From Desulfuromonadales bacterium (GTDB taxonomy: Bacteria > Desulfobacterota > Desulfuromonadia > Desulfuromonadales > JACZKF01): a stretch of 64,000 nt of DNA. Shown here one piece after another: positions 6,725-41,233 of this stretch. The stretch lies in contig JARFUG010000005.1 in the NCBI GenBank assembly GCA_029289095.1, positions 11,914-75,913 on the forward strand. Direction: 5' to 3'. The notes below the pieces were generated by a model. That model was not told the DNA's origin, ran no database searches, and saw only the letters and a list, made by a program, of their open reading frames with translations. Position 1 is the stretch's first letter. Each line of letters starts with the position of its first letter. The translations under genes and the position numbers were made by a program.

Positions 6725-6741
6725 GGAGCAGGAGCCAGAAT

Positions 6742-21051: not shown

Positions 21052-22332
21052 ATGATTTACCTCGTAGCGATCTACATGTTCTTCTTCATTTTCCGTCCTT
21101 TCGAGTACTGGCCGATCCTGGGGGAATACCGCATCGAGCGGGTCTACATGCTTTTTTTGCTGAGCGCTCTGTGTTTCTGGCAGGGGAAAAAGTATTTCCC
21201 CCACACGATCAACCGGCTGGTCCTCCTCTTCTTTGCCGTCATGGCCGCCTCGACAGCGTGGGCGCTGCACGTCGACGTCGCCTATGAGGCCACCTTCGAG
21301 TTCTTCAAGCTCATGGTCTTCTTCTTCGTTCTCGTGCTGACGTTGCGGGACGAAAGGGACCTCAAGTTCTTCATCCTGGCGTACCTGGGGATCATGAGCA
21401 TCTATGTGGGGAAATCGGCGTGGGAGTTCTTCGTCCATGACCGCCACGTTTTTCGCATGGGAATCCGCAGGATGGTAGGGGTCGACACCACCTACGGCGA
21501 TCCCAACTCCTTTGCCGCCTCCATCGCCTACAGCCTGCCGTTCCTCTGGGCGATGCTGCGTCTTTACTGGCGGGACAACCCGTGGATACGCACAGCTCTC
21601 ATCGGCTACGGCGTGCTCGCTGCGGTTGCCGTCGTCTTTACCGGGTCGCGCAGCGGCATGCTCATCTGCCTTCTCTTCCTGGTGCTGGCCTGGTGGGAAT
21701 CGGCCAGGAGATTCGCGGGACTCATTGTCCTGGCGGGGGCTCTCGTCCTGGGCTGGCATTACACCCCGGAAGATCTCAAGTACCGGTTTCTCTCCACCTT
21801 CTACAAAGGGGTCGCTCCGGCGGCGGCCGCCGCCGACACCTCTGCAGAGGGGCGGCTGGACGGTCTTTTTCACGGGATACAAATTTTTTTCGAGAATCCT
21901 GTGATGGGCGTCGGTCCCGGCAACTTCCCTTATACGTGGGAGAGAGCCATGAGCTCGCACAATCTGTACGGGCAGCTTCTCGGCGAACTCGGCGCCGTCG
22001 GCTTCATCGCCTTTTTCCTGCTGGTCTGGACGATCTACCGCACGCATCGGCGCAACCGCCTGCGCATCGACGAACTGCAGGGCGGGGATTCCATGGCGGG
22101 CTACGACCCGGGCTTGCGGCTCATGCGCCTGCTCTCGGTCGCCTCGGTGCAGACCCTCATCCTCCTTCTGTTCAACGGCAACTTCGGCCACAACCTTTAC
22201 CGCTACAACTGGCTCTGGATCGGCGTCATCGCCATCGTGACGGCGCATGTGCTGGGAGGCAGAATTCAGAATCCAGGAGCCAGGAGCCGAAAGCTGTATC
22301 CAGGAGCCAGGAGCCAGAATTCCGAAACCTGA
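21052..22332 (+). CDS. O-antigen ligase/polymerase-like membrane protein (Wzy-type, exosortase-locus type)
   Basis: 426 aa, about 10 TM segments. FTGSRSGMLICLLFLVLAWW Wzy_C-like loop. HNLYGQLLGELG. C-terminal ~24 aa (IQNPGARSRKLYPGARSQNSET) encoded by heptamer arrays. Confidence 0.8.
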   Translation: MIYLVAIYMFFFIFRPFEYWPILGEYRIERVYMLFLLSALCFWQGKKYFPHTINRLVLLFFAVMAASTAWALHVDVAYEATFEFFKLMVFFFVLVLTLRDERDLKFFILAYLGIMSIYVGKSAWEFFVHDRHVFRMGIRRMVGVDTTYGDPNSFAASIAYSLPFLWAMLRLYWRDNPWIRTALIGYGVLAAVAVVFTGSRSGMLICLLFLVLAWWESARRFAGLIVLAGALVLGWHYTPEDLKYRFLSTFYKGVAPAAAAADTSAEGRLDGLFHGIQIFFENPVMGVGPGNFPYTWERAMSSHNLYGQLLGELGAVGFIAFFLLVWTIYRTHRRNRLRIDELQGGDSMAGYDPGLRLMRLLSVASVQTLILLLFNGNFGHNLYRYNWLWIGVIAIVTAHVLGGRIQNPGARSRKLYPGARSQNSET

Positions 22333-22351
22333 AACCTGAAACCTGAAACCT
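22273..22351. repeat. heptamer arrays CCAGGAG (x2, x2.5) and GAAACCT x4
   Basis: CCAGGAG at 22273, 22280, 22300 and 22307. CCAGAAT at 22314. GAAACCT at 22324, 22331, 22338 and 22345, giving TGA in all three frames (22330, 22337, 22344). Confidence 0.95.
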
Positions 22352-23667: not shown

Positions 23668-23731
23668 ACGCAGATAAGCGCAGATGGACGAAGACCAGGT
23701 TTCCATCTGCGGAAATCTGTGCAATCTGCGG
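23659..23731. repeat. 10-nt periodic CGCAGAT array, three direct plus three inverted units
   Basis: CGCAGATGAA, CGCAGATAAG, CGCAGATGGA (23659-23688), then CCATCTGCGG, AAATCTGTGC, AATCTGCGG (23703-23731). The inner arms GCGCAGATGG/CCATCTGCG form a hairpin. The GT stop (23665-23667) lies in the first unit. Confidence 0.9.
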
Positions 23732-23745
23732 ATGAAAGATCTGGA

Positions 23746-25293
23746 ATGAAGATCAAGTCGGTCAACCGCCGCATCGCACTGAACGCCTCGACCAATTTCG
23801 TCCGGTTCGGGTCGCAGGTGGTCATCGTCTTCCTCATGACGCCCTTCATCATCGGAAGCGTGGGGGATGCGTCCTATGGGGTGTGGGTGGTGATCCTGTC
23901 GTTCGCCGGCTATGCGGCGATTCTCGAGTTCGGTGTTCACGAATCTCTGATCAAGCTCGTCTCCAAGTACGAGACGCTCGGCGACGCAGCAAAAATCAAC
24001 CAGGTCTTTTCCATCGCCTTTCTCTTCATGGCGTCTCTGGCGCTTCTCTCCTTCACTATACTGTTCTGGATCGTCCCCGGCGCCCTGCCGCGCCTTCTCG
24101 GAGAAGGAGCGGATCTGCAAACTGCCACGCTTCTGCTGAAAATCGTCGCCTTCGATGCGGTCCTGATGCTGATGAATTTCTCCTTCTCCGGCATGATCTA
24201 CGGTTTCCAGCTCTATCACATCAAGAACACCCTCGACATTTTCATCGGTCTGGTCAGCCCCCTGGTCGTCTACATCCTGATTCGCCTCGATTACGGGGTC
24301 CTCTCGCTGGCGTACGGCACGATTCTCTTCAATGCGCTCAACCTGCTCATCTTCTCCAGCCTGTGCAAGTACCACTTTCGCCCCCTGCGCCTTGTCTACG
24401 GCAGCGGCAGCTTCACCGCTGTGCGGGAAATCCTTGCCGTCAGCTCGCGCCTTTTCACCTCGGCCACTGCCCTCAGGCTCGCCCGCAATTCGCAGCCGCT
24501 GGTGATCGCCTGGTTTCTCCCCCCGGCCTGGAACGCCTTCTACGCCGTTCCGGCGCGTCTGGCCGATTACGGCAACGAACTGCTGTACGTCCTCTCGAGG
24601 GGGTTCATGCCGATCTTCAGCGAATACCACTCCCGCGGCGATCGCGCGGCGATTCGCGAGCTCTATTTTCGCTTCACGCGCTTCATCGTCGCCGGCTTCT
24701 TCCCCCTGATCCTCTCGCTGCTCGTTTTCGGGGAGAGCTTTCTGTCGATCTGGATGTCGGCGGAATACGCCGAAAAAGGGAAATGGGTTCTGCTGTTTCT
24801 GACCCTTTCGATCTTCGTGCAGAGCTGCCAGCCACTTTGGGCCAAACTTCTCATCGGTGTCGAGCGTCTGGGCGTGATTGTCTCCGTCAACGTCTCGGTC
24901 TCGATTCTCCAGATCGTCCTCGGGATCGTTCTGGTTGCGGCGTACGGGATCGACGGCATGGCGCTGAGCATTCTGTGCGCCATGTTCGTCAGTCAGTTCA
25001 TCTATTTCCGCTACGTCGCCCGTTATCTGGAGACGACTCCCTGGGATTACATTCGCGGCTGCCATGTCCGGGCGCTCCTCGCATCGGCGGTCTTCTTCGC
25101 GCTCATCTCTACACTCAGGGGAACGTTCCCTCCGCAGAGCTACTTCGCGATCCTCTGGCAGCTCGCTTTCGGTTTTGCCGTCTATATTCCCCTGGCCTGG
25201 TTCCTTGTGCTGAGCCGGAACGAGCGCCGCGTTCTCAACGAGAAGGTCGCCGGGCGTTTCGGAGCCGGAGCGGCCAAGGAGCTCGAGCCATGA
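23746..25293 (+). CDS. oligosaccharide-unit flippase (Wzx, MOP superfamily)
   Basis: Start at ATG 23746. About 12-14 TM helices. N-terminus NASTNFVRFGSQVVIVFLMTPFIIGSVGDASYGVW is typical of polysaccharide biosynthesis (Wzx) proteins. Confidence 0.8.
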   Translation: MKIKSVNRRIALNASTNFVRFGSQVVIVFLMTPFIIGSVGDASYGVWVVILSFAGYAAILEFGVHESLIKLVSKYETLGDAAKINQVFSIAFLFMASLALLSFTILFWIVPGALPRLLGEGADLQTATLLLKIVAFDAVLMLMNFSFSGMIYGFQLYHIKNTLDIFIGLVSPLVVYILIRLDYGVLSLAYGTILFNALNLLIFSSLCKYHFRPLRLVYGSGSFTAVREILAVSSRLFTSATALRLARNSQPLVIAWFLPPAWNAFYAVPARLADYGNELLYVLSRGFMPIFSEYHSRGDRAAIRELYFRFTRFIVAGFFPLILSLLVFGESFLSIWMSAEYAEKGKWVLLFLTLSIFVQSCQPLWAKLLIGVERLGVIVSVNVSVSILQIVLGIVLVAAYGIDGMALSILCAMFVSQFIYFRYVARYLETTPWDYIRGCHVRALLASAVFFALISTLRGTFPPQSYFAILWQLAFGFAVYIPLAWFLVLSRNERRVLNEKVAGRFGAGAAKELEP

Positions 25294-26930
25294 TGAGACC
25301 AACTTCCCTGATCGCCTTTGTTCTGCTCTTTCTCTGGACGGCGCCAGCCGCTGCGGGAGAGCGCCTAATAGACGGTCCGGCGATCCTCGACCAGGAAAAC
25401 GCCAGCTACCGGCTGACGGTCGATATCGAGGCGAACTCCACCCCCTTCGTCATCCGCGCTTCGGGGGTGACCCTCGATCTCGGCGGGCGCGCCATCACCG
25501 TGCGATGCCGCGAGGGGGAAGAGGGGGCGATCCACGCCGTCGCCGTCGAAGGGCATCATCTGAAACAGATCCGGATTCTGAACGGCTCCCTGAGCCAGCG
25601 CGGCCAGTGCCGCGAGAGCCATCCGGTCCATATGCCTTCCGGGGTGCACGGCGCCGAAATCGCCCACCTCGCCATCGACTACGAGTCGCCGGACGCCTCG
25701 GCCATTCGCATGCACTGGGGGGAGCATTCGCGCATCCATCACAACGTGATCGACGATCGCGGTCAGGTCGTTTCCAATCGTCACCAGGGGGTGGCGGCTA
25801 TCGATGCAGGGCGGGGGGAGGGGATGCGCATCCACGACAACACCATCCGTCGCACCCGGCATATCGGGATTCGGACGGCGGAAGGGGCCGAAATCCGCAA
25901 CAACGCGGTGCATATCGACAGCGTCGCCACGAACTCGACGGGGATCTTCGCCGCAGGAGGCGTCGTGGCGCACAACCGGGTGACGGGGGAGGGGGTTCAC
26001 CCCATCGGCATCTGGCCGGGAAACGATATCCGGGTCTTCGGGAACTACGTCCGGGTGGGAAACACCCGCTTCGGCGAAGAGTACGGCAACACCGGCGCCG
26101 CCTGCCTGCGCATGACCTGGGGAAACGACGCCGTGGAGGTGACCGACAACATCTTCATTCTCGATGCCGAAGGGGCTGCAGCGGAACCGGATTTGGAAAG
26201 CTGGGGGAGGGCGCTTTGGGTGGGGCTCCCCGAGCCGGGCCAGAGAGCGCTCTTCGCCCGCAACCTCATCGTCGCCAGCAGCCGCGAAGGGCGCGCCAAA
26301 GCGGCCGCTATCGCCGTGGTGTGCGACAACGCCTCTTCAGGGCTCGTCTTTCTGGAGAACACCGTCATCAGCAACTGGGGGGCGGTGCTGCTCGCCGACG
26401 ATTACGGGCACGCTGACGGCTACGCGCGTTTTGTCGAGAACACCTTCGTGCGCCAGGGGGATTCTCCGGAGTTTCGCACTGTGCGCAGCGATTATCCCGA
26501 ATACCCGAGTACGGGGATCTTCATCGACAACCTCTGCCTGGGGGGCGCTTCCTGCACGGAGGCCGACCTGGAGTGGGGGGGGGCGGGTCTGAAGGAGGTC
26601 GGCTTCGGCCGCCGAGTCGTCTTTGTGCTGACGGACGCTTCGGGACGCCCCCTTGCCGATGTCTCCGTGGAGATCGTCGACGCAGAGAGTCTCTCTCGTT
26701 TCGAGGGGCGAACCGATGAGAACGGGGAGATTCCGGCAGAACTCGTCGATTACTTTCTCACCAACCAGGTCGCGATGCTCATGGCATCCGGCGAGAGGGA
26801 ATTCCCGGTGCGCCGCCGCGCAACGTCCGCCCTCACGATGCGTCGGGGAGAAATGGAAAGCCGAAAATCCGTCCACACCGGAACGGAAGAGCTGCCGCGC
26901 ACGATCCGGTTAAAATTCGTCGTCGATTAG
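25290..26930 (+). CDS. secreted right-handed beta-helix (PbH1/CASH-like) protein, paralog 1
   Basis: ATGA overlap with wzx (25290-25293). Signal peptide MMRPTSLIAFVLLFLWTAPAAAG. Repeated xNxI/V beta-helix rungs (HHNVIDD, IHDNTI, IRNNAV, AHNRV, FGNYV, TDNIF). C-terminal CarboxypepD_reg-like beta-sandwich (VVFVLTDASGRPLADVSVEIVD...TDENGEI). Shares blocks with 28076 and 30316. Confidence 0.7.
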   Translation: MMRPTSLIAFVLLFLWTAPAAAGERLIDGPAILDQENASYRLTVDIEANSTPFVIRASGVTLDLGGRAITVRCREGEEGAIHAVAVEGHHLKQIRILNGSLSQRGQCRESHPVHMPSGVHGAEIAHLAIDYESPDASAIRMHWGEHSRIHHNVIDDRGQVVSNRHQGVAAIDAGRGEGMRIHDNTIRRTRHIGIRTAEGAEIRNNAVHIDSVATNSTGIFAAGGVVAHNRVTGEGVHPIGIWPGNDIRVFGNYVRVGNTRFGEEYGNTGAACLRMTWGNDAVEVTDNIFILDAEGAAAEPDLESWGRALWVGLPEPGQRALFARNLIVASSREGRAKAAAIAVVCDNASSGLVFLENTVISNWGAVLLADDYGHADGYARFVENTFVRQGDSPEFRTVRSDYPEYPSTGIFIDNLCLGGASCTEADLEWGGAGLKEVGFGRRVVFVLTDASGRPLADVSVEIVDAESLSRFEGRTDENGEIPAELVDYFLTNQVAMLMASGEREFPVRRRATSALTMRRGEMESRKSVHTGTEELPRTIRLKFVVD

Positions 26931-26992
26931 TGCAACCCGTACGGCGCAGGCGAACGCCACTGACGACATTGAGCACGAGATATCGAGACCAA

Positions 26993-27697
26993 ATGAAACT
27001 TTCCGAACTGAGAAGAAAGGTGCTGACGATAGAGAAGGTTGTTTTCTACTCTCTCGATTTGCGGCAGTGGCAGACGCCGTCTTTGCCCCGAATGCGGCTG
27101 CCGGTCAGATTTGCCTTCGGGAGAGAAGAAGACATCGAATGCATGGCGGCCGACGACAGACTCAATCTCGGAGGGCGCAGCGATTTCTATCTGCAGAAGC
27201 TGCAGATGGGACACAAGCTGCTGCTCGGAACACGGAACGAGGAGATCCTCTTTTATCTCTGGGTCGTTTCGGGGGAGAAGATCCTGATGAACAAAGTGTT
27301 GGCGCTCGAGCCGCAGCAGATCGCCATCGAGAGGGCCTTCGTCCGCAAGGACGTGCGCGGACACGGCCTCTTCGTCCACGGTCTCAATTACCTTCTCCCA
27401 CTGGAAAAGGAGGAGGGAGCGGCGAACTGCCTGACGGAGGTGAGCTGCAAGAACAGGCCGATGACCCACACCGTGCTGAAATACGGTTTCGAGCGCCTCG
27501 ACTCCTCCTACTACTGGATCTCCCATCCGCTGCGTCATCACGCCATCGTCCTCGGTCCGCTGCGAAAGCGCAGCCGCCCCAACACCATCATCTCGCCGAT
27601 GGCAGGCGCGCAGGGGAGGTATCTATGGAAGGCAGAAGCCAGAAGCCAGAAGCCAGGAGCCAGGAGCCAGGAGCCAGGAGTAAGGAATAAGGAATAA
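26993..27697 (+). CDS. small GNAT-like N-acetyltransferase (tentative)
   Basis: Start at ATG 26993. ERAFVRKDVRGHGLFVHGLNYL resembles GNAT motif A (R-x-x-G-x-G/A). The C-terminal ~20 aa are encoded by heptamer arrays, and the stop is the third TAA of TAAGGAA x3. Confidence 0.45.
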   Translation: MKLSELRRKVLTIEKVVFYSLDLRQWQTPSLPRMRLPVRFAFGREEDIECMAADDRLNLGGRSDFYLQKLQMGHKLLLGTRNEEILFYLWVVSGEKILMNKVLALEPQQIAIERAFVRKDVRGHGLFVHGLNYLLPLEKEEGAANCLTEVSCKNRPMTHTVLKYGFERLDSSYYWISHPLRHHAIVLGPLRKRSRPNTIISPMAGAQGRYLWKAEARSQKPGARSQEPGVRNKE

Positions 27698-27876
27698 GGA
27701 CCAGGAGCCAGGAGTCAGGAGCCAGGAGCCAGAGCCGGCTCGTTCTTTTCCGTTTAACTCGCCCTCCTCCCTCCTCCCTTCTTGGCCCTTCGTCCTCTGT
27801 CCTCTGTCCTCCGTCCTCCGTCCTCCGTCCTCCGTCCTCCGTCCTCTCCAACTCCCAACTCCCAGCTCCCAACTCC
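27632..27876. repeat. largest heptamer-repeat block: ~15 sense units then ~12 antisense-type units
   Basis: 27632-27735: GCAGAAG, CCAGAAG x2, CCAGGAG x4, TAAGGAA x3, CCAGGAG x2, TCAGGAG, CCAGGAG, CCAGAGC. 27793-27876: TCCTCTG x2, TCCTCCG x5, TCCTCTC, CAACTCC x2, CAGCTCC, CAACTCC. Confidence 0.95.
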
Positions 27877-27989
27877 CGCCATATCACCACAGCCTCCGAC
27901 ACAAATGGTCAACGCCTTCGCTCGAGGGTGTGAACTTTCGTTCTCCTGGCTTTTAAGATAAGTGACTGAAATTGCGTAGAAAACAAAGT

Positions 27990-28005
27990 TGGTACATGCA
28001 TTGCT
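27990..28005 (+). promoter_or_regulatory. sigma-54 (-24/-12) promoter candidate for beta-helix lipoprotein paralog 2
   Basis: TGGTAC-ATGCA-TTGCT against the consensus TGGCAC-N5-TTGCW, with exact GG-N10-GC spacing. Lies 71 nt upstream of ATG 28076. Confidence 0.6.
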
Positions 28006-28075
28006 CCTTTGAGCTCCCGGCCGACGCATAAGCCGTCGGAACCGGGCTTTTCAAATGAACAAGGAGATCACGAGA

Positions 28076-29983
28076 ATGAAGGTCAGATTTGCTGCCTTCC
28101 CTCTGCTTGCGGCTGCCCTCATGCTGATCCTGGTCGGGTGCGGCACAGACGGAGGTAAAGCGTCGTGGGACATTTCGGGAGAGGACTTCTTTGCTCCTGC
28201 CGAGAATAACGATTTCATCAGCGAGTTCCCTCAAATCGGGAACGAACCCTCCAACCCTCGGACCGAAACGCCATCTCCCGGCGAGCCTTCTCCCACCGTC
28301 GGGGCTCACGGCGCCATCGGCGCCGCCTCTGCCGGGGTCGCCTTCTGGGACGCAGAGATCCCGCACCGCAGCCGAACGGTGATGCTGAGCGCCCCTGCGG
28401 TTCTCGATCAGCCCGATACCGAATACATCCTGGCGCAGGACATCGTCGTCGCCGGAAGCGCATTCATTATCACGGCCGCGAACGTGACGCTGAACCTCAA
28501 CGGCCGTACCGTCACCTACGCGCAGAGCGCATCTTCCGGCCCAGTCTACGGCATCAACCTCATCGAACGGGGACTGTCCGATGTGGCGATCGTGAACGGC
28601 AAGATCCGCCAGGGCAATGGCGCCTCCGAGAGCGATGCGACGCAAAGAGGGTGGCACCCGGTCAACATCCTGCGCGATGTCCCCGGTCTGAAGATCGCAG
28701 GGCTCAAGGTCGAATACCGCACCCCTGAGACCTTCGCCATCAATGTCCCCTGGGGGAGGAACGGCGAAATCGCCCATAACGATCTACACGATACGGGCTC
28801 TTTCATCATCGACCGCCATCAACTTGTCGCTGTCGTCAAGGCAAACCGGGCGCCGGGAATGACGATCCGCCACAACCGCATCCTCCGCGCGCGCCAGGCC
28901 GGGATCGACGCCGGCCCCGGGGCTGTGGTGCACGATAACGAGATCGTGATCGACAGCCACAGCACCAATTCGTACGGCATCGTCCTGTACAACGTCGACG
29001 GCTTCACCGTTCACAACAACACCATCAAGGGGGCAGGGGAGCATCCCATCGGGATCGGGATGGTTTCGGGAACAAGAAATGGCGAGGTCTACAGCAATCG
29101 CGTTGAGGTGCAGAACACTCGGGGGAGCGCCGAGTACGGAGCTACGGGCTCGGCCGGGATGCGAATGACGTGGGGGACCGACAAGGTCGAGGTCCGCAAC
29201 AACCACATCACGGTGAAGGCCCAGGCGAATCTGGTCGGTCCGGGGCTCGACAGTTGGGGACGCGGGCTCTGGCTCGGGCTCCCCGATGCTGGTGCCGCCG
29301 TTCTCTTTCGCGACAACACCATCATCGCCGTGAACAAAGACGGGCGCGCCAAGGCCGCAGGGATCGCGGTGGTGTGCGGCAACAGGGCGCCCGGCCTCGT
29401 TTTCCGCAACAACCTGGTGACGAGCAACTGGGCCAACGTGCTGCTGACAGACGATTACGGAGACGCACAAGGCTTTCCCCGCTTCATCGGGAACACCTTC
29501 CGAAAGCAGGACGATCATTCCACCTATCGCACGGTTCGCAGCCAGTATGCGGGCCGCATATCAACCGGCAACTTCTTCAGCAACGTCTATGAGAACGGCG
29601 CCGCCGCCGACAGCATGGAGATGGAATTCCACGGCTCCGGACTCAAAGAAATCGGTTTCGGCTGGAGGGTGCGCCTGACGGTGCGCGATGCCGCGAACCA
29701 CCCCGTGAGCGGAGCGACGGTGCGGATCGCAGACAACAGCGGAGACGTGGTTTTCAGCGGGAGCACCGATGCCGATGGTCATGCGTTCACCGAACTGGTC
29801 GAGTTCCAGGCGACCAACCGCAGCAGCTACGTCGTCGCAGGCCAGCTCACCAAAGATGTCTTCGGCCTCTACGGCAACCGCATCCGCAAGAATCCCTACA
29901 CAGTCACCGTCGAAAAGAACGGCGTCAGGGTCTCGGAAGTGATCGAGATCAAGGCAGACAGAGAGGTGGAGATAGGACTTTAG
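28076..29983 (+). CDS. beta-helix (PbH1/CASH-like) lipoprotein, paralog 2
   Basis: ATG 28076 has an AAGGAGA RBS at 28061. Lipoprotein signal MKVRFAAFPLLAAALMLILVGC. Beta-helix rungs and a C-terminal beta-sandwich. Long identical blocks with paralog 3 (GEHPIGIGMVS, GSAEYGATGSAGMRMTWGTD, ANLVGPGLDSWGRGLW, DGRAKAAGIAVVCGN). Confidence 0.75.
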   Translation: MKVRFAAFPLLAAALMLILVGCGTDGGKASWDISGEDFFAPAENNDFISEFPQIGNEPSNPRTETPSPGEPSPTVGAHGAIGAASAGVAFWDAEIPHRSRTVMLSAPAVLDQPDTEYILAQDIVVAGSAFIITAANVTLNLNGRTVTYAQSASSGPVYGINLIERGLSDVAIVNGKIRQGNGASESDATQRGWHPVNILRDVPGLKIAGLKVEYRTPETFAINVPWGRNGEIAHNDLHDTGSFIIDRHQLVAVVKANRAPGMTIRHNRILRARQAGIDAGPGAVVHDNEIVIDSHSTNSYGIVLYNVDGFTVHNNTIKGAGEHPIGIGMVSGTRNGEVYSNRVEVQNTRGSAEYGATGSAGMRMTWGTDKVEVRNNHITVKAQANLVGPGLDSWGRGLWLGLPDAGAAVLFRDNTIIAVNKDGRAKAAGIAVVCGNRAPGLVFRNNLVTSNWANVLLTDDYGDAQGFPRFIGNTFRKQDDHSTYRTVRSQYAGRISTGNFFSNVYENGAAADSMEMEFHGSGLKEIGFGWRVRLTVRDAANHPVSGATVRIADNSGDVVFSGSTDADGHAFTELVEFQATNRSSYVVAGQLTKDVFGLYGNRIRKNPYTVTVEKNGVRVSEVIEIKADREVEIGL

Positions 29984-29987
29984 AATC

Positions 29988-30095
29988 GTGAGGAGTGAGG
30001 AGTCAGGAGTCAGGAGTCAATAGATTGAGTGCAATGCAATCGGCGGGACCCTTCGGGTTCCGCCTTTTTTTTATCCCAGCTCCCAACTCCCAACC
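29988..30095. repeat. heptamer arrays flanking a terminator: GTGAGGA/GTCAGGA x5 and CAGCTCC/CAACTCC x2.7
   Basis: Units at 29988-30022 (sense GGAGTGA/GGAGTCA family). The complement family is at 30077-30095. The two blocks bracket the hairpin at 30042-30072. Confidence 0.9.
30042..30072 (+). terminator. Rho-independent terminator after paralog 2
   Basis: GGCGGGACC (30042-30050) pairs with GGTTCCGCC (30056-30064), including one G-U pair. Loop CTTCG, followed by T8 (30065-30072). Confidence 0.8.
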
Positions 30096-30120
30096 TTCGG
30101 CTGAGGATGATTTTCACATG

Positions 30121-30140
30121 TTGTTGCATCTGCGCAACAA
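30121..30140. promoter_or_regulatory. inverted repeat TTGTTGC-N6-GCAACAA, candidate enhancer-binding-protein site
   Basis: Perfect 7-bp arms at 30121-30127 and 30134-30140, about 80-100 nt upstream of the sigma-54 -24 element at 30220. An IHF-consensus match AATCAACATCTTA (WATCAANNNNTTR) lies at 30199-30211 between them. Confidence 0.3.
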
Positions 30141-30219
30141 ACCGCCGCGCTGAGCCGCAGAGAACGAAAGTCCCAGGAAATCCTCAAAATGGTCTGAAAA
30201 TCAACATCTTACATCCTTT

Positions 30220-30235
30220 CGGCACGGCCATTGCT
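30220..30235 (+). promoter_or_regulatory. sigma-54 (-24/-12) promoter candidate for beta-helix lipoprotein paralog 3
   Basis: CGGCAC-GGCCA-TTGCT with exact GG-N10-GC spacing. Lies 81 nt upstream of TTG 30316. Confidence 0.6.
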
Positions 30236-30315
30236 GTATGGGCCTGCGTTGCACACGCGTGAGGAACCTGGGTTCCGATTGAATCCTCACCCTAAAAAGC
30301 CGATAGGAGATACCC

Positions 30316-32169
30316 TTGAGCAGACGTTTTCTTGTACTTTTTTCCCTCATTCCCTTCCTCCTTCTTGCCTGTGGCGGCGGCGAATCTGATGCTCAGGCTT
30401 TTGATCATGATCTCCCCTCCGCGAACGGCGGAGGCGGCGATTTTGTCTCAGATGAATTTCCCGGCGTCAGTCCGGGCTCTGTCGGCGCCCCTTCAGCGGG
30501 AATCGGCGCGGACGGCAAGGTCGGAGCCGATTCCTGGGATCGTCAGACACCCGCCCGCACCAACCGGGTGATGATCAGCGCACCGGGGGAGCTGACCCAG
30601 GCCGATACGGTCTATATCCTGGCTCAGGATATCTTCGCTCCCGGCACCGCCTTCACCGTCAAGGCCGCCAACGTCACCCTGGATCTCAACGGTCGCACCA
30701 TCACGTATGCCAACGGCGGCGCTTCGGAGCGGGCCTACGGGGTAAGCGTCGATCGCGGCCTGCGTGATGTGGCCATCGTCAACGGAAGCATCCGACAAGG
30801 GGGAGGAGCGCAGGAGAACAATCCCGACCAAGCGGGGTGGCATCCGGTTCATTTCGTCTCCGACACTCCGGGCTTCAAGGTTGCCGGCCTGAACATCGAG
30901 TACCGTACGCCCGAGACGTCGGCCATTCATGCCCAGTGGGGGAAGCAGGGTGAGATTCACCACAACGATCTCAACGATACCGGCTCCTTCATCATCAATC
31001 GTCACCAACTCGTCTCGGTCATCAAGAACAACCGCGGCTCCGGCACCCGGATTCACCACAATCGCATCGTCAGGGCGCGCCAGGGGGGGATCGACATCGG
31101 CAACGCTTCCGAGACAAGCCACAACGAGATCGTCGTCGAGAGCCGGAGCACCAACTCCTACGGCATCTCGTCTTACGGGATCGACGGTTTTACGATCAGC
31201 AACAATATGATCAAAGGGAGCGGCGAGCATCCCATCGGCATAGGCATGGTCTCCAAGTCGCGAAACGGCAAGGTCCACGGCAACCGCATCGAGGTTCAGA
31301 ATACCGAGGGGAGCGCAGAGTACGGCGCCACCGGCTCGGCCGGTATGCGCATGACGTGGGGGACCGACCAGGTCGAGGTCTGGAACAACCACGTCACCGT
31401 CAGGGCACAGGCCAATCTCGTCGGTCCCGGCCTCGACAGTTGGGGGCGCGGGCTGTGGGTCGGACTTCCCGATCCGCAGGCGAAGGTCCTTTTCCGCAAC
31501 AACACCATCATCGCAAAAAACAACGACGGTCGCGCCAAAGCGGCAGGGATCGCGGTGGTGTGCGGCAACGAGTCGCCGGGGCTCGTCTTTCGCGACAACC
31601 TGGTGGTGAGCAACTGGGGGCACGTCGTTCTGGCCGATGATTACGGCAAGGGGGACGGTTATCCCCAGTTCTTCGGAAACACCTTCCGCAAAGAAGACGA
31701 TCACGAAAATTACCGCACGGTAAAAAGCGATTACCGCGGCTACGTCGCCACCGGCGTCTTTATCGGCAACCGCTATGAAGGAGGATCCTCCCGCGATTCG
31801 ATCGAGGGAGAGTTCGAGTCCAGAGAGCTCAAGGATATCGCTTTCGGATGGGAATACGGCCTCACCGTGAAATCGGGCGGACGGACACTTCCCGGCGCTT
31901 CGGTGAAGATCTATGATAATACCGGCGCCGAGATCTTCAGCGGCATGACCGACGAATCCGGGCGCATCGACGCCGTTCTCATCGAGTACTGGGCGACCAA
32001 CAACAGCGACAATCCCGGACCGCCCGAGGCGCTCCGCCGGGATGTCTTCGGCGCCTACGGCAACCGCATCGACAAGAACCCCTACCGCGTCCGCATCAGT
32101 TCCGCTGGTGTGACGAAGGAGCAGCCGGTCACGGCGACCGGGAACATCAACGCCGAGGTCGAGCTGTAA
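30316..32169 (+). CDS. beta-helix (PbH1/CASH-like) lipoprotein, paralog 3
   Basis: TTG start with an AGGAGA RBS at 30305-30310. Lipoprotein signal ...FSLIPFLLLAC. Collinear with paralog 2 over nearly its full length. Confidence 0.75.
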   Translation: MSRRFLVLFSLIPFLLLACGGGESDAQAFDHDLPSANGGGGDFVSDEFPGVSPGSVGAPSAGIGADGKVGADSWDRQTPARTNRVMISAPGELTQADTVYILAQDIFAPGTAFTVKAANVTLDLNGRTITYANGGASERAYGVSVDRGLRDVAIVNGSIRQGGGAQENNPDQAGWHPVHFVSDTPGFKVAGLNIEYRTPETSAIHAQWGKQGEIHHNDLNDTGSFIINRHQLVSVIKNNRGSGTRIHHNRIVRARQGGIDIGNASETSHNEIVVESRSTNSYGISSYGIDGFTISNNMIKGSGEHPIGIGMVSKSRNGKVHGNRIEVQNTEGSAEYGATGSAGMRMTWGTDQVEVWNNHVTVRAQANLVGPGLDSWGRGLWVGLPDPQAKVLFRNNTIIAKNNDGRAKAAGIAVVCGNESPGLVFRDNLVVSNWGHVVLADDYGKGDGYPQFFGNTFRKEDDHENYRTVKSDYRGYVATGVFIGNRYEGGSSRDSIEGEFESRELKDIAFGWEYGLTVKSGGRTLPGASVKIYDNTGAEIFSGMTDESGRIDAVLIEYWATNNSDNPGPPEALRRDVFGAYGNRIDKNPYRVRISSAGVTKEQPVTATGNINAEVEL

Positions 32170-32194
32170 ACCGGAACGACATCGCTGCACAGAC

Positions 32195-32236
32195 GAAAAA
32201 AAGGTGGGATCCCTCGGGCTCCCACCTTTTTTTCGT
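32195..32236. terminator. Rho-independent, potentially bidirectional terminator after paralog 3
   Basis: An A7 run, then GGTGGGATCCC (32203-32213) pairing with GGGCTCCCACC (32216-32226) with one mismatch, then T7 (32227-32233). Confidence 0.75.
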
Positions 32237-32334
32237 CTGGGGCCGGGTGGGTGGGAGGCTTCATTAAATGTAGGAAAACTTTACAATGAAGCCTTCTCGC
32301 CTAATTTCTGTTGTATTTTCAGATAGATACGATC

Positions 32335-32350
32335 TGGCCCGGAGTTTGCT
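32335..32350 (+). promoter_or_regulatory. sigma-54 (-24/-12) promoter candidate for the PEP-CTERM cargo gene
   Basis: TGGCCC-GGAGT-TTGCT with exact spacing, 47 nt upstream of ATG 32397. A perfect 10-bp inverted repeat AGGCTTCATT (32256-32265) / AATGAAGCCT (32285-32294) lies 41-79 nt upstream. Confidence 0.6.
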
Positions 32351-32396
32351 ATTCAATGAGAACAAACCCCAACCACCCCTTTCCAAAGGAGGGAAC

Positions 32397-33023
32397 ATGA
32401 AAAAATGGATAAGTATTTTGTCGATCGGAATTCTCCTGTGCTTTTCTTCATCAGCATTGGCGCTCACGTATTATTTCGACGTCTCCAACGAATTCGGCAC
32501 ATGGCAGGGGACAGTGCCGCCGGGCTACGGCTCTGTTGAGATCGAAAAGGGAGCCGATGGCTTCATCTATTTCACCGTGACCGCGAACGACAATTTCTTC
32601 ACCCCCAGCGGTCCAGGGCTCACCTGGGACAAGTTCTACTACAATTTCAACGACCAGAAGACCCTCGACACCAGCCTGATCGTCGTCACGGCTCCCGGCA
32701 ACTGGAACGTCGACATCACGAACAGGAACGTCTCGATGTTCGGCCGCTTCGACTATGGCACGCATGGCAGCGCCATCGGGAGCGAGTTTCTCAATCCTCT
32801 TACCTTCTACATCGCCGATCCGAGCCTGGTGGAAACCGATTTCGCATTCGCCAATGCCGACGGCTACCTCTTTGCCGCGCACCTGAGAAGATTCGCTTCG
32901 ATCGACGGCAGGGACAGCACCTTCCTTGCCGTGCGCACCGAACCGATCCCCGAGCCGGCGACAATTCTCCTTCTCGGCTCCGGTCTTCTCGGCCTTTACG
33001 GCGTCCGCAAACGCCGCAGTTGA
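32397..33023 (+). CDS. PEP-CTERM sorting-domain protein (exosortase cargo)
   Basis: ATG 32397 with an AAAGGAGGG RBS. Sec signal MKKWISILSIGILLCFSSSALA. C-terminus EPIPEPATILLLGSGLLGLYGVRKRRS has the PEP motif, a TM helix and a basic cluster, the canonical PEP-CTERM tripartite signal. Confidence 0.9.
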   Translation: MKKWISILSIGILLCFSSSALALTYYFDVSNEFGTWQGTVPPGYGSVEIEKGADGFIYFTVTANDNFFTPSGPGLTWDKFYYNFNDQKTLDTSLIVVTAPGNWNVDITNRNVSMFGRFDYGTHGSAIGSEFLNPLTFYIADPSLVETDFAFANADGYLFAAHLRRFASIDGRDSTFLAVRTEPIPEPATILLLGSGLLGLYGVRKRRS

Positions 33024-33030
33024 AAAGACG

Positions 33031-33060
33031 AGCGCAGCAGGGGATTTCCCCTGCTGCGCT
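33031..33060 (+). terminator. 13-bp perfect hairpin after the PEP-CTERM gene (terminator or RNA stabiliser)
   Basis: AGCGCAGCAGGGG (33031-33043), loop ATTT, CCCCTGCTGCGCT (33048-33060). No clear T-run follows. Confidence 0.45.
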
Positions 33061-33216
33061 TCACGTCCGACACCGCGCGCCGCCCACGCGGTAATATGAA
33101 CCTTGGATCACCGGCTTTGAACCAAAGGCCTTCCCGCCACGGGTGTACCTTCCAAATAGCTGTAAACCTGTTGTTTTTTCCAAAACAAAATCGTCGAATA
33201 TTTTTTCCGGAAGCGG

Positions 33217-33244
33217 TTTACATCGGGACCTCTCTTACTATAAT
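33217..33244 (+). promoter_or_regulatory. candidate sigma-70-type promoter
   Basis: TTTACA (33217-33222), 16-nt spacer, TATAAT (33239-33244), in an AT-rich spacer. Motif match only. Confidence 0.3.
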
Positions 33245-33310
33245 TAGCCTGAAATAATTACATCTATTTTAATTAATTGATTTGTCAGAAACCTTTACAC
33301 AGGCACTCTT

Positions 33311-33326
33311 ATCGCCTTTCGACTCA
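33311..33326 (+). promoter_or_regulatory. weaker sigma-54 (-24/-12) promoter candidate for the TPR lipoprotein gene
   Basis: AGGCAC-TCTTA-TCGCC. The GG-N10-GC spacing is exact and -24 GGCAC is intact, but the -12 reads TCGC instead of TTGC. Lies 81 nt upstream of ATG 33407. Confidence 0.4.
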
Positions 33327-33406
33327 ACATCCCGTTACGAGTGAACGATGGCGGTCCTCCTTCGAAAGCGGGAATCCGGCCGACCATGCAAGGGAGAAGA
33401 ACCGCA

Positions 33407-36055
33407 ATGAAACTGCTCAAAGTATTGACCTTTGTGATGCTCGTGATCTGTCTGCTTCCCGGGTGCCGCACCCAGACCCGCGAGGCGTTGCTCGAGAAGG
33501 GGGTCGCGCTCGCTCAGGCCGGCGATTTCGATGGTGCGATCGTGTGCTTTCGAAGCGCCCTGGACAGGGATGCCAACTTCTCCGAAGCCCGGTACGAGCT
33601 GGCTCACGCCTATCTGCGGACAGGCCGGTTCGATCGGGCGGAAAACGAACTCGAGAAAGTTCTTCGCCAGGACGCCTCTTTTCCCAGGCTCCCCCTGCTG
33701 CTCGCCGAGGTCTACCTTCACAGCTCCCGCGTCGGGCAGGCGCGCGAAATAATCGAGGAATGGCTCATCGCTCACGGTCACGATGCCGATGCCTATGATC
33801 TTCTCGGGCGCGTGCATATCGCAGCGAACGATTTCATGGCGGCGGAGGAGGCGTTAAGAAAAGCGGTGCGTTTCCAGCCCGAGCACATTTCGGCCCGTAT
33901 CAATCTGGCCGCCCTGCACCTTACCCAGGGGCGCGTCGAAGCGGGGCGGACGATCCTGGAGGAGATCCTCACGGAGGCTCCCGACAACATTCCCGCGCGA
34001 AACATGCTGGCAGGCCTGGAGATCGAAGCCGGAAGGGCGGAGTCGGCTCTGGAGCAGTTCGAGGCGCTGGCGCGAGTCGATCAAAGCAGTCCCGACGCCC
34101 TTTACATGAGCGCTCTGCTGCATCTGCAGATGGGAAACATCGAGGAGGTGAAAAAAATCTCGGCAGTTCTCGATGAGCGTTTTCGCGACCATTCCCTTCC
34201 CCCCCTGCTGAGGGGGCTGATCCTCTATCGCGAGGGGAAATTTACCGAGGCGAGCATCGCTTTTCAGGCGGCCAACCGTATCCGTTCCGATTTGACGGCA
34301 TTCTATTTTCTCGGTCTGAGCTATTACCACCTCGGAAATTTCGAACTCGCCCTCAGCGAAATGCAGCGCATTCTCGATTATCGCCCCTCTTCGGTGCAGC
34401 CCCGCCTCATGAGCGCCGTCATCCTGCTGCAGCAGCAAAGGAGCGGCGACGCCATCCGGGAGGCTGAAATCGCCCTGCGCCACGATCCCCAAAGCGGCGT
34501 CGCGCACAACATTCTCGGCAGCGCCTATCTGGCCCAGGGAAAATACGATCTGGGGATGACGCACCTCGCCCGCGCCACGGCGCTCGATCCAAATCTCGCC
34601 GATGCACATCTTAAAAAAGGGATCTTCAACCTGACGAGAGGGAATTCGGAGTCGGGTGAGAGGGAAATCGTGCAGGCGCTTGCGATCGCACCCGAGGTCC
34701 TCGATACGCGGCTGATCCTGGCGAATCATCACCTGCGCCGGCAGAACTACCCCGCGGCCCTCGGCATACTGGAAGAAGGGCTCCGCGGCCGCCCGCAGGA
34801 TGCCGTCCTGTACAACGTCATGGCCGGCGCCTATTTCTCGATGAACCGGCCCCAAAAAGCACTCGAAGCTCTTCATGCCGCGAGGCGGGCCGACCCCGGA
34901 TACCTGACCCCGGTGTTCAACCTGGCTGCTTACTACGCCGCCGCGGGGGAAGCCGAAACGGCGGCCGCGGAATACCGGAAGATTCTGCAGAAAGACCCGG
35001 CGAACGTGCGCGCTCTTGTCGCCGCCGGAAGGCTTGCAGAGGCGATGGGGAAGGGCAACCAAGCGCTCGGCCATTTCCAGAGAGCCAGAGAGACCGGCGC
35101 CCCCGAGGGCTTCCTCGCCCTGGCGCAATACCAGCTCAGAAGCGGAAACGAAACAGAGGCGGCCTCTCTTCTGGACGAGGGTCTGCGCAGACATCGAAAC
35201 GCTCCGGCGCTTCTCGATGCCAAAGGACGGCTTCTGCTGCGGCAGGGGCGCGCGGAAGAGGCGATCCCCGTCTTCCAGGCCCTGGAGGCGGCAAGTCCCG
35301 GACGCGGTTATCCGGTGTTGGTGCAGATCTATCTGCAGGGCGAGCAGAGGGAAAAGGCCGAAGAGACAGCCCGCAGGGCGACTCGTGAAAACCCCGACCG
35401 CGCGTACGGGTATGGTCTGCAGGCCGCCATCCACGAGGCTGTGGGAGAACATCGGCAGGCGCTGCGGATCCTCGAAGAGGCGCGACGAAGGGTCAGAGAG
35501 CCTCAGCTCGAGATGCAGATCGGACAGCTTCACGAAAGGGCGGGCAATCATCAGAGGGCAAAGGAGAGCTACGTCCGTGTTCTGGAGAGCGCTCCCCGGT
35601 TTCATCCGGCTCTTTTCGCTCTCGCATCCCTCCAGGACCGGGCCGGCAACAAGGCAGAGGCGATGCGCCTCTACCGCCAGGTCCTGGAAATCGAGAGCGA
35701 CTTTACCCCTGCCCTCAACAACCTCGCCTATCTCCAGGCCGAAAATTTCGGCGATCCGGAAGAGGGGCTGAGACTGGCTTTTCAGGCCTATCGAAACGAA
35801 CCGGAACAGCCCGTCGTCATGGATACCCTCGGATATCTTCTGGTGCGCAACGGAAGGGCGACGGAGGCCGTCCCCCTGCTCGAGCAGGCTGCCGCCCTGC
35901 TCCCTGACACGCCCACAGTCCTGTACCACCTCGGGCTCGCCTACAAGGAGAGCGGCCAGAAGGAGAAGGCGCGAGGGGCGCTGCACCGCGCCCTCGAAAT
36001 GGGGGAGTTTCCCGAGTCCCGGCAATCGAGGAAGATTCTGGCGCAGTTGGAATAG
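33407..36055 (+). CDS. TPR-repeat lipoprotein, PEP-CTERM system type (PrsT-like)
   Basis: ATG 33407 with an AGGGAGAAG RBS. Lipoprotein signal MKLLKVLTFVMLVICLLPGC. About 880 aa of consecutive TPR units (A-x3-Y/L-x-G-x3-A periodicity throughout). Confidence 0.85.
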   Translation: MKLLKVLTFVMLVICLLPGCRTQTREALLEKGVALAQAGDFDGAIVCFRSALDRDANFSEARYELAHAYLRTGRFDRAENELEKVLRQDASFPRLPLLLAEVYLHSSRVGQAREIIEEWLIAHGHDADAYDLLGRVHIAANDFMAAEEALRKAVRFQPEHISARINLAALHLTQGRVEAGRTILEEILTEAPDNIPARNMLAGLEIEAGRAESALEQFEALARVDQSSPDALYMSALLHLQMGNIEEVKKISAVLDERFRDHSLPPLLRGLILYREGKFTEASIAFQAANRIRSDLTAFYFLGLSYYHLGNFELALSEMQRILDYRPSSVQPRLMSAVILLQQQRSGDAIREAEIALRHDPQSGVAHNILGSAYLAQGKYDLGMTHLARATALDPNLADAHLKKGIFNLTRGNSESGEREIVQALAIAPEVLDTRLILANHHLRRQNYPAALGILEEGLRGRPQDAVLYNVMAGAYFSMNRPQKALEALHAARRADPGYLTPVFNLAAYYAAAGEAETAAAEYRKILQKDPANVRALVAAGRLAEAMGKGNQALGHFQRARETGAPEGFLALAQYQLRSGNETEAASLLDEGLRRHRNAPALLDAKGRLLLRQGRAEEAIPVFQALEAASPGRGYPVLVQIYLQGEQREKAEETARRATRENPDRAYGYGLQAAIHEAVGEHRQALRILEEARRRVREPQLEMQIGQLHERAGNHQRAKESYVRVLESAPRFHPALFALASLQDRAGNKAEAMRLYRQVLEIESDFTPALNNLAYLQAENFGDPEEGLRLAFQAYRNEPEQPVVMDTLGYLLVRNGRATEAVPLLEQAAALLPDTPTVLYHLGLAYKESGQKEKARGALHRALEMGEFPESRQSRKILAQLE

Positions 36056-36060: not shown

Positions 36061-36166
36061 CAGAATCCAGAATCCAGAAACCAGGAGCCAGAAAAGAACC
36101 CTGCACCCTGAATTTTGAACCTATGGGCAAGTCTTTCTCCTGGCTCCTGGATTCTGGCTCCTGGCT
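36061..36166. repeat. heptamer inverted pair (CAGAATC/CAGGAGC family and complement)
   Basis: CAGAATC x2, CAGAAAC, CAGGAGC, CAGAAAA at 36061-36095. The complement block TTCTCCTGGCTCCTGGATTCTGGCTCCTGGCT is at 36135-36166. CCAGGAGCCAG (36081-36091) pairs with CTGGCTCCTGG (36140-36150). Confidence 0.9.
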
Positions 36167-36186
36167 ACTGTTTTAGGAGATATTCA

Positions 36187-37215: not shown

Positions 37216-37221
37216 GAGGCA

Positions 37222-37319
37222 GGAGTTGGGAGTTGGGAGTGAGGAGGCAGAAGGCGGAAGACAGAGGACAGAAGACAGAAGACAAGCCAGGAGCTATGAG
37301 CCAGGAACTATGAGCAATG
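37222..37319. repeat. heptamer array (GGAGTTG, GGAGTGA, GAAGACA, GAGGACA families) merging into a 14-mer AGCCAGGARCTATG duplication at the start codon
   Basis: Fourteen consecutive 7-nt units from 37222. AGCCAGGAGCTATG (37285-37298) and AGCCAGGAACTATG (37299-37312). The second ATG (37310) is the aminotransferase-like gene start. Confidence 0.9.
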
Positions 37320-39369: not shown

Positions 39370-40022
39370 TCGAGAACCGCAGATTTTTTCTCGCACTGTG
39401 CACGCTGGCGGCCGCCCTCATAATCGTCTTGAGCCTCTCTCAGCGCGGTGTGCCGGTCGTGCTCAACACCAATCTCGAAAACATCCCCATGGAGATCTCC
39501 GGCTATCGGGGAGTCGAGGATGTTTTCCCACCGTGGGTCTACGAGACGCTCAATGCCGATAAACATGTCTATCGCCACTACCGCTCGCCCGAAGGTGCGC
39601 AGGTGAGTTTGTACATCGGCTATTACGGAACGGCCAAGGGGGGGCGCACAAGTCACAACCCTTATGGTTGTCTTCCGAGCGTCGGCTGGACCATCGTGGA
39701 GCGGGGAATCGTGCAGGTCAGTCCCAGCTACCAGCCGCAGGGGGTTCGCGTCAACTACGTCGTCGCCAGCAAGGACGATATAAAGAACGTCATGCTCCAT
39801 TGGTACCAGAGCGCCGGAACCCGTGTTCTGGCCAGCGGAATCCAGCAGAACCTGCAGCGCTTTACCGGCAGGGTCCTTTACAACCGCAATGACGGGGCCT
39901 ACGTGCAGGTCAACGCATTCGTCCGAGAACAGGATGTCCCAAAGGCCAGGGAAGTCGTCACCGAGTTTGCCGGCGATATTCTGGAATTTCTCCCCAGACA
40001 TTGGCCAGACGAAGCGATCTGA
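39366..40022 (+). CDS. epsI: EpsI-family exosortase-associated protein
   Basis: ATGA overlap with the exosortase gene. N-terminal TM anchor FFLALCTLAAALIIVL. About 200-aa periplasmic domain with YIGYYGTAKGGRTSHNPYGCLPSVGW. Size and position are as described for EpsI. Confidence 0.75.
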   Translation: MIENRRFFLALCTLAAALIIVLSLSQRGVPVVLNTNLENIPMEISGYRGVEDVFPPWVYETLNADKHVYRHYRSPEGAQVSLYIGYYGTAKGGRTSHNPYGCLPSVGWTIVERGIVQVSPSYQPQGVRVNYVVASKDDIKNVMLHWYQSAGTRVLASGIQQNLQRFTGRVLYNRNDGAYVQVNAFVREQDVPKAREVVTEFAGDILEFLPRHWPDEAI

Positions 40023-41228: not shown

Positions 41229-41233
41229 CTGTC

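Follow-up and report, generated by a model that had tools for sequence, protein, structure and literature searches.

Why would one exopolysaccharide (EPS) locus encode three related beta-helix proteins, one inside the biosynthetic operon and two under separate control? The question arises in a 64,000-nucleotide stretch of a Desulfuromonadales bacterium (GCA_029289095.1, contig JARFUG010000005.1, positions 11,914 to 75,913; hereafter the window), which is a complete XrtA/PEP-CTERM EPS locus. The three proteins, here called P1, P2 and P3, belong to an uncharacterised beta-helix family that is a recurrent accessory component of exosortase (XrtA/EpsH-EpsI) EPS loci. There is a roughly even chance that they are EPS-specific endo-lyases or endo-hydrolases. 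We favour this reading because of their conserved groove, their place in EPS loci and the analogy to the Vibrio enzyme RbmB.

Three exported beta-helix paralogs

The three open reading frames (ORFs) lie on the forward strand and encode true paralogs, as the initial annotation of the window had proposed. P1 (25290-26930; 546 residues) has a Sec-type signal (residues 1-22, ending AAA-GE), a beta-helix and a C-terminal sandwich. It is the operon-embedded "core" copy, and the stop codon of a wzx-like ORF overlaps its start (ATGA at 25290-25293), in line with the Sec signal and the coupling to wzx described earlier. P2 (28076-29983; 635 residues) is preceded by the ribosome-binding site AGGAG, 9 nt ahead of its ATG at 28076. 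It carries the lipobox LVGC (residues 19-22, Cys22), a linker (residues 21-82), a beta-helix (~residues 95-515) and a beta-sandwich (residues 524-635). P3 (30316-32169; 617 residues, TTG start) has the lipobox LLAC (residues 16-19, Cys19) and the same architecture as P2.

P2 and P3 were 57% identical over 633 residues (E=0), and P1 was 40% identical to P2 and 43% to P3. Shared sequence blocks had been reported, and most of them were found as described: GRAKAAxIAVVC is present in all three proteins, and GSAEYGATGSAGMRMTWGTD and ANLVGPGLDSWGRGLW are common to P2 and P3. The block ESWGRxLWVGLP, said to occur in all three, does not. ESWGR is found in P1 only, P2 and P3 read DSWGR, and P2 has LWLGLP; the block truly common to the three is SWGRxLW[VL]GLP. 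P3 is identical to P0003, a protein of NCBI assembly GCA_030604755.1.

P2 and P3 are predicted bacterial lipoproteins, as each has a signal peptide that ends in a lipobox with the invariant Cys. Both previously noted lipoboxes were found and are conserved in relatives: a Cys followed by a Gly-rich linker is kept in P0001, P0002 and P0004-P0007, as well as in P3. A Gly/Pro/Ser-rich stretch follows each lipobox, and P2 residues 21-82 were disordered in the AlphaFold model.

The AlphaFold model of full-length P2 (pLDDT 88, pTM 0.84; helix alone, pLDDT 94, pTM 0.93) showed a right-handed beta-helix of three-strand rungs (~residues 95-515) and an 8-strand sandwich (residues 524-634). Both domains of the proposed architecture were clear in this model. 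An Asn ladder (N267/288/315/341/376/414/446) is conserved and sits at the T2 turn. In the model, the three-strand rungs and the Asn ladder place the proteins in the pectate-lyase-like right-handed beta-helix superfamily.

Profile searches upheld the earlier domain names in part. P2 was above the Pfam cutoffs for both NosD and Beta_helix (PF13229; 51.5 bits, cutoff 25.9), P1 was below the Beta_helix cutoff (21.6 bits), and P3 gave no Beta_helix match. C-terminal matches to CarboxypepD_reg, bMG3 and Big_1 were all sub-threshold (e.g. 23.8 against a cutoff of 32.3). A family profile did match the CnaB-like repeats of PDB 6fwv through the C-terminal sandwich (TIE protein; E 3.6e-9). Because only 6/27 close relatives matched Beta_helix, we consider the family a divergent branch of the beta-helix superfamily. 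It has no model of its own in Pfam or NCBIfam, and no relative of known structure was found.

Enzymes of the pectate-lyase fold usually bind their substrate in a groove formed by the PB1/T3 surface. Residue conservation was assessed over 149 divergent family representatives that share 24-40% overall identity. D239, R247, R273, N298, R363 and Y461 were conserved in at least 92% of these, H248, E353, Y354 and R396 in 81-85%, and the D459 position held Asp or Glu in 84%. By the strand register of the model, R247/H248, R273, N298, E353/Y354, R363 and R396 are placed where the T3 turn meets PB1, rung after rung. Conservation of this Arg-rich groove with Asp, Glu, His and Tyr across such divergence argues for a polysaccharide-binding active site. 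Every one of these conserved residues is retained in P1, P2 and P3, and none of the three sequences has the look of a pseudo-enzyme.

Promoters, terminators and the family in other genomes

P2 and P3 have predicted sigma-54-dependent promoters of their own, recognised by -24 GG and -12 GC elements at exact spacing, intergenic placement and conservation in orthologues. The P2 element, TGGTACatgcaTTGCT (TGGTAC-N5-TTGCT; 27990-28005, forward strand), is conserved upstream of orthologues, and the P3 element, CGGCACggccaTTGCT (CGGCAC-N5-TTGCT; 30220-30235, forward strand), has orthologous sites in loci L008 and L033. The relaxed sigma-54 pattern was not over-represented in the window (6 matches vs 7.7 expected), so the argument is one of placement and conservation. 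In the first 11 fetched loci, TGGYAY-N5-TTGCT occurred five times, always directly upstream of a family gene. The strict sigma-54 motif was found upstream of 7/9 stand-alone ("satellite") copies vs 0/11 clear operon copies. It also matched at the EPS-adjacent copies L021 and L022, and its background was 35 matches per 1.02 Mb. The promoters and terminators assigned to P2 and P3 in the initial annotation were thus both found, and promoters of the same type precede stand-alone members in other genomes.

The terminator after P2 is an intrinsic one (30042-30072, forward strand; -22.1 kcal/mol, z=-3.2), and P3 is followed by an A-tract/U-tract terminator hairpin (32190-32239, forward strand; -41.1 kcal/mol, z=-6.2). 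None of 200 shuffled sequences folded as well as either hairpin. Rfam searches gave no family in the window at the gathering score and only chance-level matches in 27600-33400, so we assign no riboswitch to the P2 or P3 leader.

A palindrome that is a candidate enhancer (activator) site, GAACTTTCGTTC (27932-27943, forward strand), lies 59 bp upstream of the P2 -24 GG. The palindrome GAACGAAAGTCC (30162-30173, forward strand) lies 59 bp upstream of the P3 -24 GG. The consensus RAAC-N4-GTY stands 59 or 58 bp ahead of the -24 GG in 4/4 Desulfuromonadales-type copies (P2, P3, L008a and L008b), and a looser variant, AAACCAAAGCTT, stands at the same offset in L033. The 11-mer GAACGAAAGTY was not over-represented in the window (4 matches vs 2.2 expected); its significance lies in its fixed position rather than in its number.

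The gene downstream of P3 encodes a PEP-CTERM protein (32398-33023, forward strand; TIGR02595 1.4e-5, above cutoff; gene call in locus L001). Its upstream region (32269-32350, forward strand) contains TGTAGGAAAACTTTACA, a 17-nt TGTA-N9-TACA palindrome ending TTTACA, and, 49 nt on, the sigma-54-type promoter TGGCCC-N5-TTGCT. TGTAGGAAAACTTTACA occupies the same distance as the P2 and P3 palindromes, and the layout is shared. From the -24/-12 element to the start codon there are 70-80 nt at P2 and P3 and 48 nt at the PEP-CTERM gene. In the published description of PEP-CTERM genes, a sigma-54 "motif 2" follows a "motif 1" after a spacer (Haft et al. 2006, PMC1569441). Such genes are associated with RpoN and with PrsK/PrsR (PMC1569441, PMC9850573). 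RpoN dependence of one such gene was shown experimentally in Aquincola (PMC9850573). The upstream layout of the window's PEP-CTERM gene fits the published motif 1/motif 2 box, here in a non-proteobacterial-looking (Desulfuromonadales-like) genome.

The Nitrospirota satellites carry another motif instead, CTGTAGGRAATA, ~95 bp before the -24 element (L003:9836-9850, L011:3578-3592, and also in L014, L015 and L018). It shares TGTAGGAA with the upstream motif of the window's PEP-CTERM gene. From these elements we infer that P2 and P3 share an activator-dependent regulon with PEP-CTERM proteins, and that P1 is expressed with the biosynthetic genes.

Beyond the window, a profile search returned 3538 representatives at E<1e-3 and 482 cluster representatives at E<1e-30, many of them multidomain. 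A word-indexed search returned 25 clusters only, and the named ones were called "carboxypeptidase-like regulatory domain-containing protein". Fusion partners in the wider family include fn3, CHB_HEX_C_1, dockerin, Big modules (Big_7) and InlB B-repeats. The fn3, CHB_HEX_C_1, dockerin and Big modules are typical of secreted carbohydrate-active enzymes. The source names attached to the wider-family clusters carried no useful information. A tblastn search of a plasmid collection (72,556 records) found no family member, and a full-text search of a literature library found no paper that connects beta-helix proteins to PEP-CTERM or exosortase.

We scanned one genome per species and identified neighbouring genes by tblastn with the window proteins. 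This yielded 21 loci, from Desulfuromonadales/Geobacter, Thermodesulfovibrionales/Nitrospirota, Acidobacteriota, Planctomycetota, Desulfovibrio caledoniensis and Pseudodesulfovibrio karagichevae. XrtA and EpsI were at most 10 kb away in 10/21 loci, and a further 4/21 adjoined Wzy, a glycosyltransferase, wzx or PrsT, which places 14/21 in exosortase/EPS loci. The remaining 7/21 were satellites. The taxa with exosortase loci include Desulfuromonadales, Nitrospirota, Acidobacteriota and Desulfovibrionales, and the usual gene order is Wzy_C-GT4-[helix]-XrtA(EpsH)-EpsI-PrsK-PrsR. Across phyla, the family is found time and again beside exosortase genes, though it lies outside the curated marker set. 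The earlier statement that it is not part of the canonical PEP-CTERM markers agrees with this: the NCBIfam XrtA/PEP-CTERM markers (TIGR030xx) matched none of P1-P3, and P2 had only a weak NosD match.

Several genomes carry 3-4 family copies. Three other assemblies have the P1/P2/P3 trio or the P2-P3 tandem within it. In the Desulfuromonadales metagenome-assembled genome (MAG) SF2967, one locus (L032) reads Wzy-GT-wzx-P1 (71% identity)-ORF (69%)-P2-like, and another (L012) has a P3 orthologue (84%) adjoining PrsT. Contig L008 holds a P1-like fragment, XrtA, EpsI, PrsK and PrsR, then P2-like (65%) and P3-like (68%) genes, and L033 has tandem orthologues of P2 (73%) and P3 (77%). The P2/P3 duplication predates these lineages, because the orthologues are closer to each other than are P2 and P3 (57%).

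One Nitrospirota MAG has an operon copy and an SLH-anchored satellite, and relatives P0018 and P0019 carry SLH anchors. In the region L011:3746-7975 (GCA_002634385.1, labelled Nitrospira), a satellite has C-terminal SLH domains. A short way downstream of it come a 184-residue ORF and then a gene for a protein with Peptidase_M10, InlB B-repeats and SLH. These SLH-bearing genes suggest cell-wall-anchored variants.

Candidate activity and its alternatives

Structure searches with Foldseek (E 1e-6 to 1e-3 overall) returned, at a probability of ~1.0, the HK620 and Dettilon tailspikes, AlgE4/AlgG, the RbmB lyase (PDB 9ozl), PL6 and the glycoside hydrolase (GH) families GH28, GH87 and GH91. These are mostly glycan-active beta-helix enzymes, and NosD scored likewise. 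The initial annotation had not decided between lyase, hydrolase and epimerase activity, and Foldseek returned exactly these classes in a way that does not discriminate among them. A lyase of this fold acts on uronic acids and has, in its PB1 groove, a Lys/Arg Bronsted base next to a site where Ca2+ or Arg neutralises the carboxylate. Such chemistry is compatible with R247, R273, R363, R396, E353 and D239, and with K426 of the close subfamily; no residue equivalence was mapped, and the PL1 WiDH motif is absent.

Each protein would bind the locus's own EPS along the PB1/T3 groove and cleave it as an endo-lyase or endo-hydrolase, much as RbmB acts on Vibrio polysaccharide (VPS) or as AlgL, PelA and PslG act in other systems. 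The C-terminal CnaB/transthyretin-like sandwich would be an accessory or binding module. P1 would be a soluble periplasmic or secreted copy, made with Wzy, the glycosyltransferase and Wzx, that processes chains during polymerisation. P2 and P3 would be lipid-anchored, probably at the outer membrane or cell surface, through flexible linkers of ~60 residues. They may be transcribed only when a sigma-54 activator, probably PrsR, fires, along with the neighbouring PEP-CTERM gene; the regulated outcome would be remodelling, trimming or release of cell-bound EPS.

Several observations weigh against this reading. The Foldseek TM-scores of 0.3-0.5 at 9-14% identity indicate generic fold likeness only, and hidden Markov model searches of PDB sequences were empty for the helix region, whether with P2 alone or with 27-sequence and 111-sequence profiles. 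A motif search of P1-P3 found none of the known catalytic signatures DPH[DE], GH28 NTD/GHG/RIK or PL1 WiDH. K426, the sole invariant Lys of the close subfamily, is kept in 41% of the wider family, and the groove placement reflects the secondary-structure register of the model rather than three-dimensional distances. A UDP-sugar dehydrogenase gene, for uronic-acid supply, was not found among the window ORFs scanned and is present in one related locus. PrsK and PrsR were not found in the window by tblastn.

Motif searches also speak against two enzyme classes. For GH28 polygalacturonases, NTD and RIK occur in no paralog (a single GDG in P3 is outside the conserved residue set), and for AlgG/AlgE a regular-expression search found the defining DPH[DE] in none of P1-P3. 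The missing DPH[DE] bears directly on the proposal that the proteins modify the polymer rather than depolymerise it. They might, for instance, be C5-epimerases whose targets are uronic-acid residues in nascent EPS, comparable to the periplasmic AlgG or the surface-acting AlgE. AlgE4 was the top helix-only Foldseek match (E 9.5e-5), with AlgG and AlgE6 also among the matches, and the site of P1 inside a biosynthetic operon beside Wzy and Wzx recalls AlgG. The conserved H248, H323, Y354 and Y461 could serve epimerase chemistry. However, the TM-scores to AlgE4/AlgG (0.3-0.4) are no better than those to lyases or hydrolases, and no uronic-acid synthesis gene was seen among the window ORFs. We regard epimerisation as rather improbable.

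A non-catalytic role is also unlikely in our judgement. In that reading the proteins would be lectins or scaffolds that tether EPS to the outer membrane by the lipid anchor (by SLH in relatives), alongside PEP-CTERM proteins. P2 and P3 are predicted to be anchored and are apparently co-regulated with a PEP-CTERM structural protein, relatives P0018 and P0019 have SLH anchors, and the C-terminal domain resembles the CnaB-type adhesin domains of the TIE protein. Tethering is a known theme, because overexpression of the PEP-CTERM protein PepA lowers soluble EPS (PMC9850573). P1, however, has no anchor, and the near-invariant charged and polar residues across the 149 representatives fit an active site better than the surface of an adhesin. 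In addition, pertactin-type Foldseek matches had the lowest probability (0.5-0.7), and the wider family is fused to enzyme-type accessory modules. The last alternative, NosD-like periplasmic beta-helix chaperones working with an ABC transporter and having no polysaccharide role, is highly improbable. It stems from the Pfam NosD match of P2 (PF05048; 25.8 bits vs cutoff 23.6) and from NosD of the NosDFYL complex among the Foldseek matches (E 6e-4), but the Pfam match spans only ~80 residues of generic PbH1 repeats and TIGR04247 gave 18.2 bits vs a cutoff of 300. There are no NosF/NosY/NosZ neighbours, and the consistent gene context is EPS and exosortase genes. We rejected this reading, for its scores and its gene neighbourhood alike, as close to refuted.

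That EPS loci encode a cognate processing enzyme is already established, and carbohydrate-active beta-helix proteins of EPS loci are a well-known kind. New here are the systematic association of this family with exosortases, the conserved split between an operon copy and anchored, sigma-54-driven satellites, and the candidate enhancer site. Exosortase/PEP-CTERM systems are widespread in bacteria of sediment, sludge and biofilms and underlie floc formation, and their polymer chemistry and processing are largely unknown. An un-named beta-helix family immediately before xrtA in several phyla is a candidate for the missing EPS-processing enzyme, and the sigma-54 control of its stand-alone copies is arranged as at PEP-CTERM genes. 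More tentatively, and with the chances clearly against it as a whole, a new carbohydrate-active enzyme family (lyase or hydrolase) might form a PrsK/PrsR-sigma-54 regulon with PEP-CTERM proteins. The anchored copies might then switch EPS between a cell-bound state (flocs, biofilm) and a trimmed or released one, with the constitutive periplasmic copy in a housekeeping processing role. The conserved residues and the -59 palindrome, as a candidate activator site, are testable items. If the proteins prove to be depolymerases, they are possible tools for dispersing flocs.

The surrounding locus and known systems

The wzx-like flippase ORF before P1 is at 23719-25293 (forward strand; Pfam Polysacc_synt_3 4.3e-11). 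A small ORF after P1 (26993-27697, forward strand) had no Pfam or NCBIfam match and has a counterpart of 69% identity beside the P1 orthologue in L032; an R-G-H-G-L stretch, seen by eye only, hints at a GNAT fold. Downstream of the PEP-CTERM gene lie the TPR lipoprotein PrsT, an XrtA/PEP-CTERM locus marker (33341-36055, forward strand; TIGR02917 8e-163), and exosortase XrtA with EpsI (38527-40022, forward strand; TIGR03109 4e-66 and TIGR02914 2.5e-28). The assembly genes comprise an EpsB2-type priming transferase, an exporter, a chain-length determinant, an ATPase and an outer-membrane protein. The locus also has a FemAB-family protein, many glycosyltransferases, FemAB/GNAT paralogs, aminotransferases, deacetylases, an ATP-grasp protein, and amino-acid and 2-hydroxyacid dehydrogenases.

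Six paralogous FemAB/Acetyltransf_6-type genes were found (18625-19794, 36115-37215, 41039-42361, 42362-43600, 45430-46575 and 47912-49000). Beside this set are two aminotransferases, an ATP-grasp gene, an AMP-ligase, an ELFV-type amino-acid dehydrogenase, a 2-hydroxyacid dehydrogenase and a radical SAM/SPASM gene; the ELFV dehydrogenase was seen again in related loci L004, L006 and L009. The FemAB and accompanying genes suggest an amino-sugar polymer heavily decorated with amino-acyl or acyl groups. A PglK/MsbA-like ABC flippase (51714-53534) and a second Wzy_C/PEP_O_lig_1-like gene (54046-55440) come on top of the Wzy_C at 21052 and the wzx at 23719, so this one locus may have two routes of glycan assembly or include a branch for protein O-glycosylation.

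A fourth beta-helix protein, unrelated to the others, had also been proposed. Its gene is on the reverse strand (60988-62529, or start 62496), and the lack of relationship to P1-P3 was borne out (hhalign probability 0.15%), so it was rejected as a relative. It has a signal or transmembrane segment and a He_PIG Ig domain (3.5e-9), the only domain that Pfam finds. PbH1-like repeats were seen by eye only, with no Pfam Beta_helix match. An fn3-domain ORF (62619-63158, reverse strand) adjoins it.

Tandem arrays of related heptamers (CCAGGAG, GGAGTCA, GGAGTTG, AGGACGG, CAGAATC and complements) occur at many gene boundaries. They lie at 6724-6806, 9265-9473, 16302-16331, 19738-19770, 22273-22351, 27633-27877, 29991-30094, 36061-36170 and 37221-37322. 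G-rich arrays are often followed by C-rich ones, two flank the P2 terminator, and some ORF tails are artificially lengthened by them. The arrays resemble the STRR repeats of cyanobacteria. The array pair between P1 and P2 (27625-27885) folded no better than shuffled sequence (z=-1.2).

Among known systems, P2 and P3 resemble PEP-CTERM genes (PMC1569441) in their organisation: each forms a unit of one gene, preceded in turn by an upstream motif, a spacer and a -24/-12 promoter that lies 70-80 nt ahead of the start codon. Their palindrome, RAAC-N4-GTY, differs from the TGTAGGAAAACTTTACA of the window's PEP-CTERM gene. Unlike PEP-CTERM proteins, P1-P3 have no PEP-CTERM sorting signal: TIGR02595 matched none of them, and their C-termini end in the beta-sandwich. 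They are therefore not exosortase substrates.

Phage tailspikes (HK620, Dettilon, P22 and the Klebsiella K1 lyase) were the best full-length structural matches (E 4e-6 to 1e-4), and they too pair a beta-helix that bears a long glycan groove with a beta domain at the C-terminus. However, tailspikes are trimeric virion proteins with particle-binding N-termini, whereas P1-P3 are chromosomal EPS-locus genes with signal peptides. A PHROGs search gave only two weak tail-spike matches, both for P1 (E 2.8e-4). AlgG and AlgE, like P1-P3, are beta-helix proteins of an EPS pathway, and AlgG is periplasmic and operon-encoded. They differ in the DPH[DE] motif, which P1-P3 lack, and in low TM-scores; moreover, the alginate pathway is synthase-dependent, whereas the window locus is of the Wzx/Wzy type.

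The best analogue is RbmB of Vibrio cholerae, a VPS alpha-1,4-polysaccharide lyase (PDB 9ozl; PMC11637428, PMC12993940). It ranked third in the helix-only Foldseek search (E 2.9e-4, TM 0.40-0.46). RbmB and P1-P3 are only 9% identical, with no relationship at the sequence level; RbmB lacks the C-terminal sandwich, the lipid anchor and the sigma-54 satellite paralogs, and no counterpart of its catalytic Lys227 was mapped in P1-P3. RbmB is described as a periplasmic lyase with a Lys base, a Glu and several Arg that grip the carboxylates of glycine-amidated sugars (PMC12993940). The window locus, too, looks built for amino-acyl-decorated sugars. The RbmB groove holds Arg residues and a Lys/Glu pair, and the P1-P3 groove is Arg-rich with Glu, Asp and His. 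Like P1, RbmB is a right-handed beta-helix with a Sec signal, encoded in a matrix/EPS region beside matrix-protein genes. Periplasmic chain processing has been proposed for RbmB, and P1 may act likewise.

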